The notes under the pieces are model-generated. The model ran no database searches, was not told where the DNA came from, and saw only the letters and a program-made list of their open reading frames with translations. A stretch of 24,330 nucleotides of DNA. Source: a virus. Shown here piece after piece: positions 10,797 to 16,567 of this stretch. Where the stretch lies: the UHGV virus genome UHGV-0242784; one strand, 5' to 3'. Position numbers and translations under genes: made by a program. Within the stretch, counting starts at the first letter, position 1; each line of letters starts with the position of its first letter.

Positions 10797-11290
10797 TAAG
10801 CCCCCACGTAATTCCCTGACAGATACCACTCTTCACCCGATGCAGCGCGCTTGCTGCTTTTCCGTAAGCACCGCTCACGACGCGCCAGAAAATTGTTTCG
10901 TTCTGGCTGGGAGTGGCTTTCACGGAATGCCGCCATCCACACGGTTGCAGCACGACGAAATAAGCCCCTGGACTCCAGTTCTTCAGCCTGGCGGGTCAGG
11001 CACAAAATCACCCGGGGATCGTTAGTGCCGACATAGAAATTGCGCACAGGTCTGGTTTCACGAACTGGTTGTGGTTCCGGCTCCTGCGCTCTCTCAGTCA
11101 GGCGCGGGAAATGTCTGCGTGTATCTCCTTCACAACGGTGAGCCACACGCCCGCTCTGACGTAACTTGCTTGCTGACTGCAGTACGCGCTGCCGTGAGTA
11201 ACCTGCAAAAGCATCCGCAATGTCTCCGGAAGTACACCCCGGATGGGCTTCAATGAATTTCTGAACGTCATTCAAAAGACTCATGCTCAC
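10796..11290 (-). CDS. Hypothetical protein (164 aa), basic C-terminal half
   Basis: ORF coupled to flanking genes by ATGA/TAATG overlaps; family not recognised. Confidence 0.55.
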   Translation of the reverse strand: MSMSLLNDVQKFIEAHPGCTSGDIADAFAGYSRQRVLQSASKLRQSGRVAHRCEGDTRRHFPRLTERAQEPEPQPVRETRPVRNFYVGTNDPRVILCLTRQAEELESRGLFRRAATVWMAAFRESHSQPERNNFLARRERCLRKSSKRAASGEEWYLSGNYVGA

Positions 11291-12228
11291 CCCCTGAATC
11301 CTGCCGGGATCTGGCTGTAGTCCACATTGTCGTAACTGGCTTTGAAGTACGGGTCTTCGCGTTTTTCTGTGTACGTGCTGATGGACGGCGATAAGCGCAG
11401 GGAAAGCTCATCCCATTTTTCCCGCAGCTTCGACGGGCTGAGCACGTTACGGCACCAGAACGGATCGCGGCTGATGCGGCTGTACATCTCGCAGATTTGT
11501 TTGTGAGTACGACCATCCTGCACACACATCAGGCGAATTTCGTTTGCCCAGGCTGTCCAGTTCGGTTCTTTGGGACGAACCACCTCGCCGTCACATTCGG
11601 CGGCCTGCTCGTACAGGGCGATGATTTTTTTCCAGAGCCACTGTGCGCAGGTCAAATCATCCTGCGTTCCCCACTGGCACTTTTTAGGGCTGAATACAAC
11701 CGCATCAGGATGGCGAGTTAAAAAATCCTGTTCAGCCGTCTGCGTGTCCGGTTGCGAAACGTCCGGACGAGAAGGTTTTTTATCTGACGGATCATATTTT
11801 GATTTTACTGACGGATCCCCGCCAGATTCTGACGGGTGAAAACCCGCTTTTTTGCCAGATTTCGACGCATCAAATTTTGACGGGTCAGATTTTGATGCGT
11901 CAGATTTTGACGGGTCAGAATCTGACAGTTGAGAAAATGCCGCGGCCTGAAGCTTCGCAACGTTAAGCTGATAAACATTCGACGCATTACGGTTACCCTG
12001 GCGACGCGCCTTACGCGTTAACCAGCCTTCTGCTTCCAGCCGTGCAATAGCCGTTCTGACGGTACTCATCCCCGCGCCAATCTGGCGGGCAATGGTTTCA
12101 ATCGATGGCCAGCACACACCTTCGTCATTACTGAAATCAGCCAGGCGGGCCATAATTGCCACACTGGATAATTTCATGCCTGACGCTGCGCAACCATCCC
12201 ATACATAGCCGGTTAATTTAGTGCTCAT
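11287..12228 (-). CDS. Replication initiation protein (N-terminal HTH; internal iteron-encoded SDPSK repeats)
   Basis: N-terminus (LSSVAIMARLADFSNDEGVCWPSIETIARQIGAGMSTVRTAIARLEAEGWL) resembles the HTH of phage/plasmid initiators; mid-protein repeat SDPSKSDASKSDPSKFDASKS is encoded by tandem DNA repeats. Confidence 0.75.
   Translation of the reverse strand: MSTKLTGYVWDGCAASGMKLSSVAIMARLADFSNDEGVCWPSIETIARQIGAGMSTVRTAIARLEAEGWLTRKARRQGNRNASNVYQLNVAKLQAAAFSQLSDSDPSKSDASKSDPSKFDASKSGKKAGFHPSESGGDPSVKSKYDPSDKKPSRPDVSQPDTQTAEQDFLTRHPDAVVFSPKKCQWGTQDDLTCAQWLWKKIIALYEQAAECDGEVVRPKEPNWTAWANEIRLMCVQDGRTHKQICEMYSRISRDPFWCRNVLSPSKLREKWDELSLRLSPSISTYTEKREDPYFKASYDNVDYSQIPAGFRG
11776..11930. repeat. Putative origin iterons: five tandem 15-bp repeats (consensus CAGATTTTGACGGGT, 11856-11930) plus related copies at 11784-11837, inside the replication gene
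   Basis: Direct reading: cagatttcgacgcat / caaattttgacgggt / cagattttgatgcgt / cagattttgacgggt / cagaatctgacagtt; arrangement analogous to ori-lambda inside gene O. Confidence 0.6.
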
Positions 12229-12237
12229 GACCGACCT

Positions 12238-12576
12238 CTATTTCCCTGAATTTACGACGAAACTGTTCGAGCGGGCTGAAGCACTCATGCTCATAGCCTT
12301 CGCGGAGGTAGATAACCCGTTGTGTTTCCGGTTCCCAACGAATGACTCTGACGGGTACTCCGTAGTGATCTTTGAACCAGCGGTTAACTTGTCGCAAAGG
12401 ACTGTCTCCTTCTGCCGGTTGAAATCACCCACAGCCCACTCAGCAAAGCTGTGGGTTACAATTTCCCTGTCACCTGGTACATTTACTGCATAGCAATACT
12501 CCACCTTCGCTTTTCCACCCGGTACAGGAAGCGCAATCAGTTGCGAGCGACGGTAGTGTGTTGTTAAACTGTTCAT
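12238..12576 (-). CDS. Hypothetical protein (112 aa)
   Basis: Start ATG overlaps the upstream stop (ATGA) and the ORF ends 10 nt before the replication gene, consistent with an operon; the overlapping plus-strand ORF 12221-12493 is rejected. Confidence 0.4.
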
Positions 12577-13244
12577 GCGTTAGTTTCTCCACAACCAGAA
12601 GCAATCGACGCCACGACGCCCGGAGCTGCACACTCGCGGGCGTCATTACTTTCTGAAACGCAAAAAATTTTGTAGACAAGTGCTGCATGCTCCTGCAGCT
12701 TCGAAATTGAGAGGTACAGCTCGTCGTTAATTGCTGTCTTCTCATGCGGTTCCACTACACCGTCTTCGATTGCCGAACGAATCTGTTTTGAATAACTGCC
12801 GATCTGTTCAATGACTTCCAGTAAACGCTGGTTAATATCGGCATTGTCCACATCCTCGACGTCAGGAAGAGACACAAAGACGCCATTTGCAGACTGCGCC
12901 ACAGCGTCAGCAATGAAGTGAGTGCCACCAGCACGTTGTAAAATCATTGCCCATCCCAGCGGGAAAATCTGATCGCCATCGGCACGAAGGCGGTTAAATA
13001 ATGCGTTCTCTGTTACATCCAGCCAGTCAGCTGCTTCAGCGTAACCACCCGGCAACGCTGCGATAGTTTTTCTGACAGCTTTCACGTACCACTCAGGCTG
13101 TTTTTCTACTTTCCAGTGATACTTACCCACGGTTAGCCTCATCGTTCTGTGGTTTCTGTTAATCGATTTATCCATTAGATTTTTCATAAAGCTCAGGTTT
13201 AAATGGCAACCGTCCGCAAGTTCTATATGCTGCTTCTGCTGCAC
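12573..13244 (-). CDS. YdaT-like protein in the cII position (start uncertain; ORF overlaps the cro-like gene by 77 nt if 13244 is used)
   Basis: ORF track; N-terminus [12 protein letters not shown] resembles my recollection of Rac YdaT; alternative starts at 13187, 13175 or 13142. Confidence 0.5.
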
Positions 13245-13368
13245 GTCCTTTTGGAATTAACTGGCCCGGACGGTTTCGCCACTGATAAACGGCCTCAGTT
13301 GTTATGCCGAAAAAAGCAGCAACTTTCTCAATACTGCCGAAGTAGCTTTCGATATCGTCAGTTGTCAT
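13168..13368 (-). CDS. Cro/YdaS-like HTH regulator (66 aa), divergent from cI
   Basis: HTH-like segment IEKVAAFFGITTEAVYQWRN; SD GGAGGG 5 nt upstream of the ATG; divergent arrangement with the repressor gene. Confidence 0.65.
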   Translation of the reverse strand: MTTDDIESYFGSIEKVAAFFGITTEAVYQWRNRPGQLIPKGRAAEAAYRTCGRLPFKPELYEKSNG

Positions 13369-13377
13369 ACGCCCTCC

Positions 13378-13445
13378 AAAACTAAGTTTTATTAGATGTT
13401 AATTATCAATCTATCTTAGGTCAATAAAAACTAAGATTACTTAGT
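13378..13445. promoter_or_regulatory. Immunity-region operators and PR-like promoter: O1 AAAACTAAGTTTT (13378-13390), O2 ACTAAGATTACTTAGT (13430-13445), PR -10 TAACAT / -35 TTGACC on minus strand (13396-13424)
   Basis: Palindromes and hexamers read directly in the 98-bp cI/cro-like intergenic region; both operators share the ACTAAG half-site. Confidence 0.6.
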
Positions 13446-13466
13446 AATTTAAGAAATGGTGCTCCT

Positions 13467-14093
13467 ATGGAAACGGTTGGTCAGCGTATAAAAGCTCTGA
13501 GAAGGGTTACCAGAACGTCCCAGAAAGAATTGGGTAAATTTTGTGGGGTAAGTGACGTTGCTGTGGGGTACTGGGAAAAAGACATCAATGTCCCTGGCGG
13601 GGAAGCACTTTCGAAATTAGCGAAGTTCTTTAATACGTCAATAGATTACATTCTTTATGGTGCTGAGTTTGAAGGCAAACTAGTCACAAACATGCGCAGA
13701 GTTCCTGTAATTTCGTGGGTTCAGGCTGGGCAGTTTACTGAGTGCAGGGCAGCAGAAGTGTTTAGTGAAGTGGACAAGTGGGTAGATACATCTTTAAAGA
13801 TTGGTGATAACTCATTTGCATTAGAAGTTAAAGGCGACTCCATGACTAATCCTAATGGCCTCCCAACAATACCAGAAGGTGCAACAGTGATTGTAGATCC
13901 TGATGCAGAACCTCGTCATGGAAAAATAGTCATTGCTCGACTTGATGGAACGAACGAAGCTACAGTAAAAAAATTAGTCATCGATGGTCCTCAAAAGTTT
14001 TTAGTGCCATTAAATCCACGGTATCCCAACATCCCAATCAATGGTAATTGCCTGATCATTGGTGTAGTCAAAGGAGTTCAATACGAACTCTAG
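13467..14093 (+). CDS. cI: CI-type prophage repressor (HTH-XRE N-domain + S24 LexA-like autopeptidase C-domain)
   Basis: N-terminal HTH (QKELGKFCGVSDVAVGYWE), linker, C-terminal S24 domain with GDSM serine motif (EVKGDSMTNP) and a downstream Lys (KKLV); divergent from the cro-like gene. Confidence 0.9.
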   Translation: METVGQRIKALRRVTRTSQKELGKFCGVSDVAVGYWEKDINVPGGEALSKLAKFFNTSIDYILYGAEFEGKLVTNMRRVPVISWVQAGQFTECRAAEVFSEVDKWVDTSLKIGDNSFALEVKGDSMTNPNGLPTIPEGATVIVDPDAEPRHGKIVIARLDGTNEATVKKLVIDGPQKFLVPLNPRYPNIPINGNCLIIGVVKGVQYEL

Positions 14094-14115
14094 TACCTCC
14101 CTTCTCTAACCAAGG

Positions 14116-14150
14116 CACCAAACTAAGAAAAGTTTGGTGTTTCCTCTTGC
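14116..14150 (+). terminator. Hairpin after cI (CACCAAACT-AAGAAA-AGTTTGGTG) with T-rich tail; terminator or operator-like palindrome
   Basis: Perfect 9-bp inverted repeat 23 nt after the cI stop; the arms contain the operator-like AAACT/AGTTT sequence. Confidence 0.45.
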
Positions 14151-14154
14151 CTTA

Positions 14155-14167
14155 AAAACTAAGTTAA
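14155..14167. promoter_or_regulatory. Third operator-like site AAAACTAAGTTAA (11/13 match to O1) inside a candidate promoter TTGCCT-N17-TAGATT (14147-14175, plus strand)
   Basis: Direct sequence comparison with O1; candidate OL/PL equivalent. Confidence 0.4.
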
Positions 14168-14256
14168 GTTAGATTTAATATCAAAGATAACGAACAGGCA
14201 GGACGCCCACAAAGTAGCCTCCTGGGGCAAATGAAGTCCAGGATGATTCGTTAGCA

Positions 14257-14282
14257 ACAAAAAAGCGCCCTATAGGACGCTT
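14257..14282 (-). terminator. Rho-independent terminator for the 173-aa gene (GCGUCC-UAUA-GGGCGC with one G-U pair, then UUUUUU on minus strand)
   Basis: Stem-loop at 14265-14282 with a U-tract (complement of AAAAAA 14259-14264), 40-60 nt downstream of the stop at 14324. Confidence 0.55.
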
Positions 14283-14323
14283 CGATCTTTAACAATCTGG
14301 GTATCATCCAACCAATGCAAGAT

Positions 14324-14845
14324 TTAAGGAATCCAAGGCGAATTCAGATCTCGCCCCGACTCACGTAATGATCTTGGTCGTTCGTACATCGGATTTTTTT
14401 CCATAAGAAATTTATTTTCACAGTGAAGGCAACGGCTTGTAAGAAAATGAGAAGTTTTACCTACTGGAAGCGGATGAAGTATCGATTTTATATTTTTGGA
14501 ATAACAAAGTGGGCACAGATGCACAGTTATTTCTTTTCCACTCACAATTTCATTTTTAGAGTAAACAAAAGCACCAGAGTCAAGCTGATCAAGGACATAT
14601 CCTTCTACCTTGGCACAAAAATCTTCAAACTCTGCAATTTTTGCTTTGAGATGCATCACCTCTTCATCACGAAGGCGGATCGCATCGCCAAGAGAGAAGC
14701 ATTCTGCCTGAAGCGTGATTAGTTTGTTCTGGAGTTCAATGGTTGCAGCTTTAACTTCTGCATCCGTTTTCGCGTCATTAATAACCTTAGCAAGACCGGC
14801 AGTCTCCTTTATAGCAGCCATAGCCGCAGACAGTTCAGCTATCAC
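14324..14845 (-). CDS. Hypothetical coiled-coil + zinc-ribbon protein (173 aa), lone gene convergent with cI
   Basis: ORF with apparent GTG start (alternative ATG at 14824); N-terminal heptad-like Ala/Leu/Lys/Glu-rich region; C-terminal CPLC...(x22)...CLHC; own terminator. Confidence 0.6.
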   Translation of the reverse strand: MIAELSAAMAAIKETAGLAKVINDAKTDAEVKAATIELQNKLITLQAECFSLGDAIRLRDEEVMHLKAKIAEFEDFCAKVEGYVLDQLDSGAFVYSKNEIVSGKEITVHLCPLCYSKNIKSILHPLPVGKTSHFLTSRCLHCENKFLMEKNPMYERPRSLRESGRDLNSPWIP

Positions 14846-15131
14846 GTTGAATACTCAGCTAGTTGTTGGGGGTATCCAGATTAACCAAATCCTTGTTGTT
14901 GGGGAATAACCAGGTCCACCTCGCCTGATGTGGCTAAAAGCAGGCACATAACAGCTAAGTATTTTCAACCAGAGAGAATCCTTAGCGTTGTGGTGAATGC
15001 GGCTCAGCGCACGCGGGTTAAGGTTGAGGCTGACAGTCGACCTTCTGTGGATACCCACCCGTCTGGTGTGCAACCTTCGCCAGGCACCGGGAGGCACCCG
15101 GCACCACAACTTTATGCTGTGTGTAGTCCTG

Positions 15132-15176
15132 GCGGTACCAGTTTGTACCCTTGCTTCCGGCTGGTACCGTCCTTTT
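15132..15176 (+). terminator. Terminator-like hairpin (CGGTACCAG ... CTGGTACCG, 19-nt loop) followed by TCCTTTTT
   Basis: Perfect 9-bp inverted repeat followed by a T-tract; inside the non-coding leader of the accessory operon. Confidence 0.5.
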
Positions 15177-15265
15177 TACAAAACAGAGAAGAGCATCACC
15201 GGACGACGGGCTCATAACCCAATCCATCCGGGCGGCTGCCACCGCAGGTGTTCTTCTCTGTTTTG
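15177..15265. repeat. Perfect 15-bp inverted repeat (ACAAAACAGAGAAGA / TCTTCTCTGTTTTGT) enclosing 59 nt with internal GC-rich hairpins: candidate structured RNA element
   Basis: Arms at 15177-15191 and 15251-15265 are exact reverse complements; the enclosed segment has further local pairing (GCGG-CTGCCA-CCGC). Confidence 0.6.
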
Positions 15266-15314
15266 TGGAGAAACTAATCGGCCTTGCAGGGTCGATATGA
15301 TGAGGAGCAGCAAA

Positions 15315-15677
15315 ATGGCTAGCGAACGCAGTACTGATGTGCAGGCATTTATCGGGGAGCTGGACGGCGGCGTATTTGAAACCAAAATCGGCGCAGTTCT
15401 CAGTGAAGTCGCTTCCGGTGTGATGAACACGAAAACCAAAGGTAAGGTCTCGCTCAACCTGGAAATCGAACCATTTGATGAGAACCGTGTGAAAATCAAA
15501 CACAAACTCTCATATGTTCGCCCGACTAACCGCGGGAAAATTTCCGAAGAAGACACCACCGAAACGCCGATGTATGTCAATCGCGGTGGTCGCCTGACTA
15601 TTCTGCAGGAAGACCAGGGACAATTACTGACTCTTGCCGGTGAGCCTGACGGAAAATTACGCGCAGCAGGTCATTAA
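15315..15677 (+). CDS. YfdP-like hypothetical protein (120 aa)
   Basis: ATG at 15315 with SD AGGAG 7 nt upstream; the N-terminal extension in the ORF track (from 14997) is rejected; size and order match the CPS-53 yfdP-yfdQ-yfdR-yfdS cluster as I recall it. Confidence 0.6.
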   Translation: MASERSTDVQAFIGELDGGVFETKIGAVLSEVASGVMNTKTKGKVSLNLEIEPFDENRVKIKHKLSYVRPTNRGKISEEDTTETPMYVNRGGRLTILQEDQGQLLTLAGEPDGKLRAAGH

Positions 15678-15742
15678 TATCGTTCTTAATTAACTGATTA
15701 TTTATCTCATCACTGAATATCTTTATATAGTGAGGACTTATT

Positions 15743-16567
15743 ATGTCTCAGAACTTAGACGCAACCGCAATTAATCAAATCCATGCCCTTATTTCTGCTC
15801 AGGGTGTTAATGAAATTATCAGTAAGATTGGTGCCGATGCTGTGGCATTGCCTGAGAATTTCCGCATTCATGATCTGGAAAAATTTAATTTAAATCGCTT
15901 CCGTTTCCGTGGTGCGCTTTCCACTGCCAGCATCGATGACTTTACCCGTTATTCTAAAGATCTTGCAGATGAAGGCACCCGCTGCTTTATCGATGCCGAT
16001 AATATGCGAGCCGTCAGTGTGCTTAACCTGGGTACTATTGGTGAACCAGGTCACGCAGATAACACCGCCACACTCAAACTGAAAAAGACAGCACCGTTCT
16101 CTGCTCTGTTGTCTGTTAATGGCGAGCGTAACTCCCAGAAGTCACTGGCAGAATGGATTGAAGACTGGGCCGACTACCTTGTGGGCTTTGATGCTAATGG
16201 TGACGCTATTCAGGCAACAAAAGCGGCTGCGGCGGTCCGAAAAATCACGATTGAAGCAAACCAGACCGCTGATTTTGAAGATAATGACTTCAGCGGCAAA
16301 CGCTCCCTGATGGAGTCTGTCGAAGCGAAGACCAAAGATATTATGCCAGTGGCATTTGAATTTAAATGCGTTCCGTTTGAAGGTCTGAAAGAACGTCCAT
16401 TTAAATTACGCCTCAGCATTATCACTGGCGATCGTCCTGTACTGGTTCTGCGCATTATTCAGCTGGAAGCAGTGCAGGAAGAAATGGCTAACGAATTTCG
16501 TGATCTGCTTGTTGAGAAATTCAAAGACAGCAAAGTAGAAACCTTTATTGGTACTTTCACCGCCTGA
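15743..16567 (+). CDS. YfdQ-like protein (DUF2303 family, 274 aa)
   Basis: ORF with SD GAGGA; length and N-terminus consistent with my recollection of E. coli YfdQ. Confidence 0.7.

Follow-up and report, generated by a model that had tools for sequence, protein, structure and literature searches.

The question raised by this locus is what the ACTAAG-type repeats on both sides of its cI-like repressor gene represent, and which protein reads them. A first-pass annotation had described three operator-like sites with an ACTAAG(T) core, two at the cI/cro switch and one after cI, namely AAAACTAAGTTTT at 13378-13390, ACTAAGATTACTTAGT at 13430-13445 and AAAACTAAGTTAA at 14155-14167. These strings were all found at exactly those positions in the window, by which we mean the whole 24,330-bp stretch of DNA that was analysed. 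The sites do share a motif, but their number is five rather than three (OR1, a weak OR2, OR3, OL2 and OL1), and the repeated unit around cI is an 18-bp dyad, AACTAAG-N4-CTTAGTT. Very probably, these repeats are the operators of a P22-type lysis/lysogeny switch, a reading in which we infer binding by the repressor from sequence comparisons.

The genes of the switch and their host context

The window derives from a lambdoid prophage of E. coli, of the mEp460 / CFT073-prophage type, and contains its immunity region. That region is 100% identical to E. coli FDAARGOS_1258, and 94 to 96% identical to phage mEp460, to phages vB_EcoS-569R4 and vB_EcoM-689R6 and to a CFT073 prophage. At least 80% of segment 13100-14400 is found in phage mEp460 and in 513 of 5,426 complete E. 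coli genomes, among them that of CFT073. To judge by 20 titles among the 64 papers that mention it, mEp460 appears in the literature as a prophage-typing label only. Two divergent genes form the core of the region:

13467-14093, plus strand: cI-type repressor, 208 aa, with an HTH_3 N-terminal domain and an S24 autopeptidase domain (LexA-like)
13168-13368, minus strand: cro-like gene, 66 aa, first gene of the PR operon, divergent from cI

Both domains of the repressor are recognised by Pfam (HTH_3, PF01381, E 3.5e-9; Peptidase_S24, PF00717, E 1e-27), and the protein carries an Ala87-Gly88 cleavage motif as well as Ser125 and Lys168. Over its full length it is 47% identical to P22 c2 (205 residues, E 1e-65). 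The N-terminal domain matches the P22 c2 structures 2r1j, 3jxb and 1adr of the PDB (E about 7e-10), and the C-terminal domain matches that of lambda cI, with VQAG, GDSM and KKL aligned with the cleavage and catalytic residues. The cro product belongs to the Pfam family P22_Cro (PF14549, E 4.4e-11), is 30% identical to P22-type Cro, and is annotated in RefSeq as Cro/CI family. On the minus strand, cro is followed by a YmfL/CII-like gene and then by a replication gene. About four tandem 15-bp repeats (CAGATTTTGACGGGT) are present at 11856-11919, within a 313-aa HTH replication-initiator-like gene, and by analogy with the lambda O gene they look like origin iterons.

An 18-bp dyad around the repressor gene

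The five sites are the following:

13380-13397: OR1, AACTAAGTTTTATTAGAT, an exact CTAAG-N5-TTAG dyad that overlaps the PR -10 and start region
13404-13421: OR2, weak, TATCAATCTATCTTAGGT, whose right half overlaps the PR -35; absent from the first-pass annotation
13429-13446: OR3, AACTAAGATTACTTAGTA, a perfect 16-bp palindrome nearest to cI, with zero mismatches to ACTAAGNNNNCTTAGT
14121-14138: OL2 candidate, AACTAAGAAAAGTTTGGT, with a consensus left half and a degenerate right half, inside a terminator hairpin
14157-14174: OL1, AACTAAGTTAAGTTAGAT, which fills the PL spacer and overlaps its -10; the best 18-mer of the window

The site now called OR1 had been presented as the 13-bp palindrome AAAACTAAGTTTT. 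This definition has to be given up, since the AAAA/TTTT flanks vary while the downstream TTAGAT is kept, which makes the 18-bp dyad the unit. Relatives read, for example, TTAGCTAAGTTTGG, in which the outer runs of A and T are not conserved, and TTAGAT at OR1 is invariant in all relatives but one. A repeat finder also aligned CCTCCAAAACTAAGTTTTATTAGAT (13373) with CCTTAAAAACTAAGTTAAGTTAGAT (14150) at 80% identity over 25 nt, so that the common unit exceeds the 13-mer.

Counting alone requires some care. The bare heptamer AACTAAG occurs four times in the window, which is not unusual (27 of 100 shuffles reach four), and all four copies lie within 13380-14163. The dyad CTAAG-N5-TTAG occurs exactly three times in the 24,330 bp (13382, 13431 and 14159), with a one-mismatch copy at 14123. 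In 30,000 first-order Markov simulations modelled on the two intergenic regions, such dyads numbered 0.008 per run on average and never as many as three. When up to one or up to three mismatches are allowed, the counts over the whole window are not above those of shuffles. The significance of the sites therefore rests on the exact dyads, their clustering and their conservation, and not on enrichment over the whole window. Moreover, the CTAAG-N5-TTAG pattern was chosen after looking at the sequence, so that the independent test is the comparative one.

Conservation among relatives

A search for the motif in phages with orthologous repressors had been suggested in the first-pass annotation as a check. 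We scanned 20 loci whose repressors are 63 to 90% identical to that of the window, using one genome per species, from about ten other genera (Enterobacter, Kosakonia, Kluyvera, Serratia, Rahnella, Yersinia, Rouxiella, Providencia and Proteus). The outcome was favourable: the OR sites were found in nearly all of them at the same distances, and OL sites in 15 of the 20. Upstream of the repressor ATG, most relatives have dyad matches at -85 to -87, the position of OR1, and at -35 to -39, that of OR3 (-48 in locus L091; no match in L095). Downstream of the cI stop codon, two matches are present in 14 of the 20, near +22 to +44 and +55 to +79; those of L090 lie at +81 and +113, and L085 has the distal one only. 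Elsewhere in the 5.6-kb loci there are almost none. Measured in 20 sequences (the window and the 19 relatives having an OR3 anchor, L095 being left out), the layout OR1, 6 bp, OR2, 7 bp, OR3 is invariant, which gives OR1-OR2 and OR2-OR3 spacings of 24 and 25 bp, respectively.

In variants from E. coli that diverge by about 4% in cI, changes in the operators are confined to the central or outermost bases. One central base of OR1 varies, and OL1 is essentially invariant, with one single-base variant. The OL1 sequence is also identical in eight of the relatives with OL sites, belonging to five genera, although the flanks have diverged.

A position matrix was built from 82 half-sites of the relatives only, with the window excluded. 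Its consensus reads A-(A/T)-C-T-A-A-G-(T/A)-T; A1, C3, T4, A5 and A6 are nearly invariant, G7 is predominant and the inner positions are variable. Applied to the whole 24-kb window, this matrix returned OL1 (14157, score 24.9), OR1 (13380, 21.2), OR3 (13429, 20.1) and OL2 (14121, 12.2) as the best four 18-mers, in that order. The next best, at 2852, is unrelated and scores 5.2. OR2 (13404) scores 1.8 and ranks seventh of 24,313 positions, its right half alone scoring 10.0.

The left part of this arrangement is not universal, as illustrated by the Rouxiella clade, where post-cI sites are missing and a third site is found upstream instead. Five loci comprising this clade and metagenome-assembled genomes (L091, L093, L094, L095 and L104) have no operator sites 3' of the repressor gene. 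Several of these five loci carry a third site, located about 31 bp beyond OR1, and in L104 and L095 a complete set of three sites is repeated about 400 to 480 bp upstream. To judge from these sequences, the left operator seems to be organised differently in that clade. Three Providencia and Proteus loci (L096, L097 and L098) have a third OL-region site immediately 3' of the PL -10 (+77 to +80 relative to the stop codon), and thus three sites on the left compared to two in the E. coli version.

The probable right operator and PR

A promoter scan detected a candidate for PR within this layout:

13424..13396, minus strand: PR-like promoter, with a -35 TTGACC (13424..13419), an N17 spacer and a -10 TAACAT (13401..13396)

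GGTCAA is conserved in most relatives, and the position of this promoter relative to OR1 and OR2 matches that of P22 PR. The overlap of the first site with the predicted PR start region, noted early on, was borne out: OR1 covers the -10 as well as the start. OR2 has one good half-site only in the window. It is degenerate among relatives, yet it displays its own dyad symmetry in each lineage, such as ACCAA..TTGGT or ACTAAT..ATTAGG (AACCAATCTAACTTTGGT, TACTAATCTTTATTAGGT and ATATAAGTTTTCTTTTAT), as would be expected of a weak dimer site.

OR3 presumably overlaps PRM. Weak -10 candidates for this promoter are AGTAAT or TAATTT (13443-13451), and TAAGAT in OR3, none of them with a convincing -35 or clear conservation.

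The probable left operator, PL and its leader

Three further features lie between cI and the next gene:

14116-14148, plus strand: cI intrinsic terminator, with a 9-bp stem CACCAAACT/AGTTTGGTG (14116-14124 and 14131-14139), a 6-nt loop and a T-rich tail TTTCCTCTT
14147-14175, plus strand: PL-like promoter, with a -35 TTGCCT (14147-14152), an N17 spacer and a -10 TAGATT (14170-14175); start near 14181-14183
14189-14305, plus strand: shared PL leader module, 117 bp, non-coding, outside the immunity-specific segment and with no annotation under it

A third copy of the motif had been placed about 60 bp past the cI stop, inside the promoter TTGCCT-N17-TAGATT. We measure 62 bp after the stop at 14093, and the promoter strings are as described. 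The end of the OL1 site provides the -10 hexamer TAGATT. In relatives, the corresponding stretch reads TTGACC or TTGACA, 4 bp, AACTAAGTTAAGTTAGAT, then TTT, and a common E. coli variant has TTGCCA instead of TTGCCT at the -35.

The sequence predicted to be transcribed from PL, ...CAGGCAGGACGCC...GTAGCC, with its leader CAGGCAGGACGC, shows homology to the opening bases of the PL transcripts of P22 and lambda, ATCAGCAGGACGC. The 14189-14305 module, which starts with this lambda/P22-like leader CAGGCAGGACGC and ends with a boxA-like ATCTTTAACAA, matched 1,612 E. coli records, including prophages with other immunity regions (SfIV, e14-like). Exactly from position 14189 onwards, immediately past the promoter, the sequence is again homologous to heteroimmune prophages (SfIV and e14-type), and SfIV has GTAC-type dyads instead and no CTAAG dyads. 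The operator sites lie within the immunity-specific DNA, which is bounded just 3' of the PL -10. This boundary, together with the situation in SfIV, places the third site in the immunity-specific module, on a genuine homologue of PL. The fold of the leader (14182-14320) is no more stable than that of shuffles (z -0.5), and therefore a put-like or nut-like RNA is not claimed. An Rfam search of 12500-16000 gave no match at the operator sites.

A convergent gene and its terminator are found in this part of the window:

14324-14845, minus strand: 173-aa gene without a Pfam match, convergent with cI and PL
14262-14283, minus strand: strong intrinsic terminator of the 173-aa gene

In mEp460, PL stands directly 5' of a different plus-strand gene, encoding a 122-aa product with a C-terminal HTH. 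Given this different gene at the same position, the 173-aa gene looks like an inserted extra ('moron') cassette. The PL transcript of the window would run antisense to the 173-aa gene, into the gene and its terminator. The yfdP-yfdQ-yfdR genes lie on the plus strand beyond this convergent gene.

Some other observations concern this neighbourhood. The 14262-14283 terminator is overlapped by a weak minus-strand Rfam match to Phe_leader, probably a chance one. A full-length match to STnc100, a gammaproteobacterial sRNA of Rfam, was found in the early-left region (14957-15179, plus strand, 41.2 bits, E 9e-7), just below the gathering score of 47; RefSeq has a frameshifted hypothetical gene there, and mEp460 has near-identical ORFs. 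For segments 11268-11290 of the window and 1697-2185 of L001, RefSeq marks a gene beyond the 173-aa ORF as frameshifted and a neighbour of the yfdN/PerC family as a pseudogene with an internal stop. Because of this pseudogene and the frameshifted gene, the prophage may be partly decayed despite its intact immunity region.

A terminator hairpin that may double as OL2

The palindrome directly after cI, with its AAACT/AGTTT arms, had been mentioned alongside the operator-like sites. It is primarily an RNA terminator hairpin, and this part of the proposal has to be revised; it nevertheless carries the OL2 candidate, 36 bp from OL1. The hairpin folds at -14.7 kcal/mol (z -3.3). In eight other aligned sequences (seven relatives and an E. 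coli variant), changes in the stem are mainly one-sided changes to G-U, and one is compensatory. One-sided changes of the G-U type indicate RNA pairing on the plus strand, and hence that the hairpin is the terminator of cI. In the Yersinia, Providencia and Proteus relatives, a full 18-bp site occupies the OL2 position with no GC-rich stem, and the terminator lies elsewhere. We hold with moderate confidence, on the basis of these comparisons, that the terminator hairpin may double as OL2. The terminator alone might account for the right half of OL2.

As to an OL3 upstream of OL2, the only candidate is an isolated CTAA at 14106-14109, whose spacing is inconsistent in relatives, and it was rejected.

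Comparison with P22 and lambda

P22 c2 is the closest characterised repressor: both proteins combine HTH and S24 domains, with the 47% identity given above, and both phages have a cro of the P22_Cro family. The P22 repressor binds as a dimer to 18-bp sites that are symmetrical about an axis between base pairs 9 and 10, the outer 7 bp being conserved and the 4 bp at the centre variable (PMC4267663). The operators of the window have the same 18-bp geometry, in their axis as well as in their conserved outer positions and variable centre. OR spacing is also similar (23/25 bp in a P22-immunity phage, 24/25 bp here), and in both phages the PR -35 is at the edge of OR2. The OL of P22 likewise comes directly after the repressor gene, its PL reading TTGACC, 4 bp, OL1 AATTAAGAAGTCTTAAAT, TTT; its OL1-OL2 distance is 35 bp, compared to 36 bp here, and the start of the PL leader is common to both. 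An OR/OL-like pair flanking the repressor gene was part of the first-pass annotation and is supported. In contrast, the distance of about 770 bp between the two, which it had singled out, is not a special feature, since P22 has the same layout.

Differences from P22 are of two kinds. Some concern organisation: OL2 appears fused with the cI terminator, unlike in P22; a P22-immunity phage has OL1, OL2 and OL3 after c2, whereas the window is without a clear OL3; the cI leader of the window is about 20 nt long with a GGTG, whereas the P22 ATG abuts OR3; and the early-left genes differ, the window being without gene 24 (N-like) beside PL. Others concern specificity. The half-sites have AxxTAAG in common, but P22 reads ATTTAAG and the window AACTAAG, so that the contacted position 3 is T in P22 and C in the window. 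The operator specificity of P22, which would indicate homoimmunity, was not found here: the half-site is CTAAG and not TTAAG, and the residues of the recognition helix differ. Across four groups of phages, helix and half-site were as follows:

P22 type: helix SNVAISQWERS, half-site TTAAG
Photorhabdus, Xenorhabdus: helix SHVAISQWEKE, half-site TTAAG
Window and relatives: helix SDVAVGYWEKD, half-site CTAAG
Morganella, Proteus: helix NRVTVTGWEKG, half-site ATGTAAG / CCTACAT

This covariation of helix and half-site is the strongest indirect support for the cI-like protein as the reader of the sites. With a different half-site and a different recognition helix, the phage of the window and P22 should be heteroimmune. 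Thus, as predicted from its repressor and operators, the window is a member of the P22 c2-type family with a distinct immunity specificity, and not of P22 immunity. Reading operators from prophage sequences and correlating them with the recognition helix is an established approach: in the Cro 'evolutionary code' database of Hall, Cordes and co-workers, OR half-site consensus sequences from prophages were correlated with recognition-helix residues (PMC6649833). The operator strings had no match in a full-text search of the literature, the coverage of which is incomplete; within that coverage, this operator specificity class appears to be undescribed.

The resemblance to lambda is more general. 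It includes divergent cI and cro genes, a tripartite OR at about 24-bp spacing, an OL at PL, and a PL transcript beginning with a CAGCAGGACGC-type leader. The C-terminal domains of the two repressors are homologous, with the cleavage site and the Ser/Lys dyad aligned, whereas the relationship between the N-terminal domains is remote. The operators of lambda have a length of 17 bp and an axis on a base pair (PMC6649833), compared to 18 bp in the window. According to PMC5880393, the presence of rexA and rexB puts OL of lambda at a distance of 2.3 kb from OR.

A model for the switch, and alternatives

In the mechanism that we propose, dimers of the cI-like repressor, and by analogy of Cro, would recognise AACTAAG-N4-CTTAGTT with an axis between base pairs 9 and 10, the central four bases of the dyad probably not being contacted. 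OR1 and a cooperatively filled weak OR2, covering the PR -10/start and -35, respectively, would block PR. OR3, beside cI, would overlap the putative PRM and thereby permit autoregulation. The terminator directly after cI would end the cI transcript. PL would drive the early-left operon on the plus strand, and OL1, with or without OL2, would block it. RecA-stimulated self-cleavage at Ala87-Gly88 would lift repression and lead to prophage induction. In this scheme, repressor binding and its cooperativity are inferred, as are the location of PRM and a role for OL2. Points that speak against the model are the weak candidates for PRM, the single good half-site of OR2, the degenerate right half of OL2, the missing post-cI sites of the Rouxiella clade and the course of the PL transcript into the convergent 173-aa gene. 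Tentatively, and as an idea that we consider rather doubtful, OL2 may have merged with the cI terminator in the E. coli/Enterobacter/Kosakonia clade, the same 24 bp acting as an RNA terminator and as a DNA partner that cooperates with OL1, perhaps also anchoring an OR-OL loop of about 777 bp.

Of the other explanations, the one to be taken most seriously concerns the left side only: OL1 may be the sole operator there, and the hairpin at 14116-14139 just the cI terminator, its ACTAAG being a leftover or a coincidence. We give this reading an appreciable chance, although well short of an even one. The changes from A-U to G-U and from C-G to U-G in the hairpin point to selection on RNA pairing, the right half-site of OL2 scores only 1.7, and the 13-bp AAACT/AGTTT symmetry pointed out in the first-pass annotation is simply the sequence of the stem. 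However, OL2 still ranks fourth in the window under a matrix blind to the window, its distance from OL1 agrees with that of OL2 in P22, CTAA is invariant across the hairpin variants, and the more distant relatives have a full site at this position with no stem.

The two remaining explanations question the operators as a whole. The motifs may be bound by another protein (Cro only, the YmfL/CII-like protein or a host factor), the link with cI being positional only. Cro proteins share operators with repressors, and sequence alone therefore cannot identify the binder. Nevertheless, the half-site varies together with the recognition helix of the repressor across clades, in geometry and promoter overlap the sites reproduce the P22 arrangement, in which c2 binding was demonstrated, and ymfL is also present in heteroimmune phages without the motif, so that we find this very improbable. 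Finally, the repeats could be functionless, a chance similarity in AT-rich intergenic DNA, as the unexceptional window counts of the short core and of the dyads relaxed to one or three mismatches might suggest. Composition-matched simulations never yielded three exact dyads in 30,000 trials, and position and sequence are kept across about ten genera where the flanks diverge. We give this explanation virtually no weight; conservation in the relatives and the relatives-only matrix effectively refute it. We thus retain operators of a P22-type switch, with the cI-like repressor as their probable reader.

Significance

We describe here a new class of specificity for what is otherwise a textbook switch of the P22/lambda kind. 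It leaves the current understanding of lambdoid switches unchallenged, and is unsurprising but useful for annotation and immunity typing. The consensus allows PR and PL to be annotated in such prophages and may serve in the design of reporters and of orthogonal repressor/operator pairs. If the merged OL2/terminator is real, it would tie together termination, repression of PL and long-range autoregulation within a very compact unit. Compared to P22, the locus represents a natural swap of specificity, in which a change of T to C at position 3 of the half-site goes along with N-to-D, S-to-G and Q-to-Y changes in the helix, and which could be compared with the well-studied P22 c2-DNA structures. 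As this immunity region is common in E. coli, its operator consensus may allow groups of superinfection immunity to be predicted.
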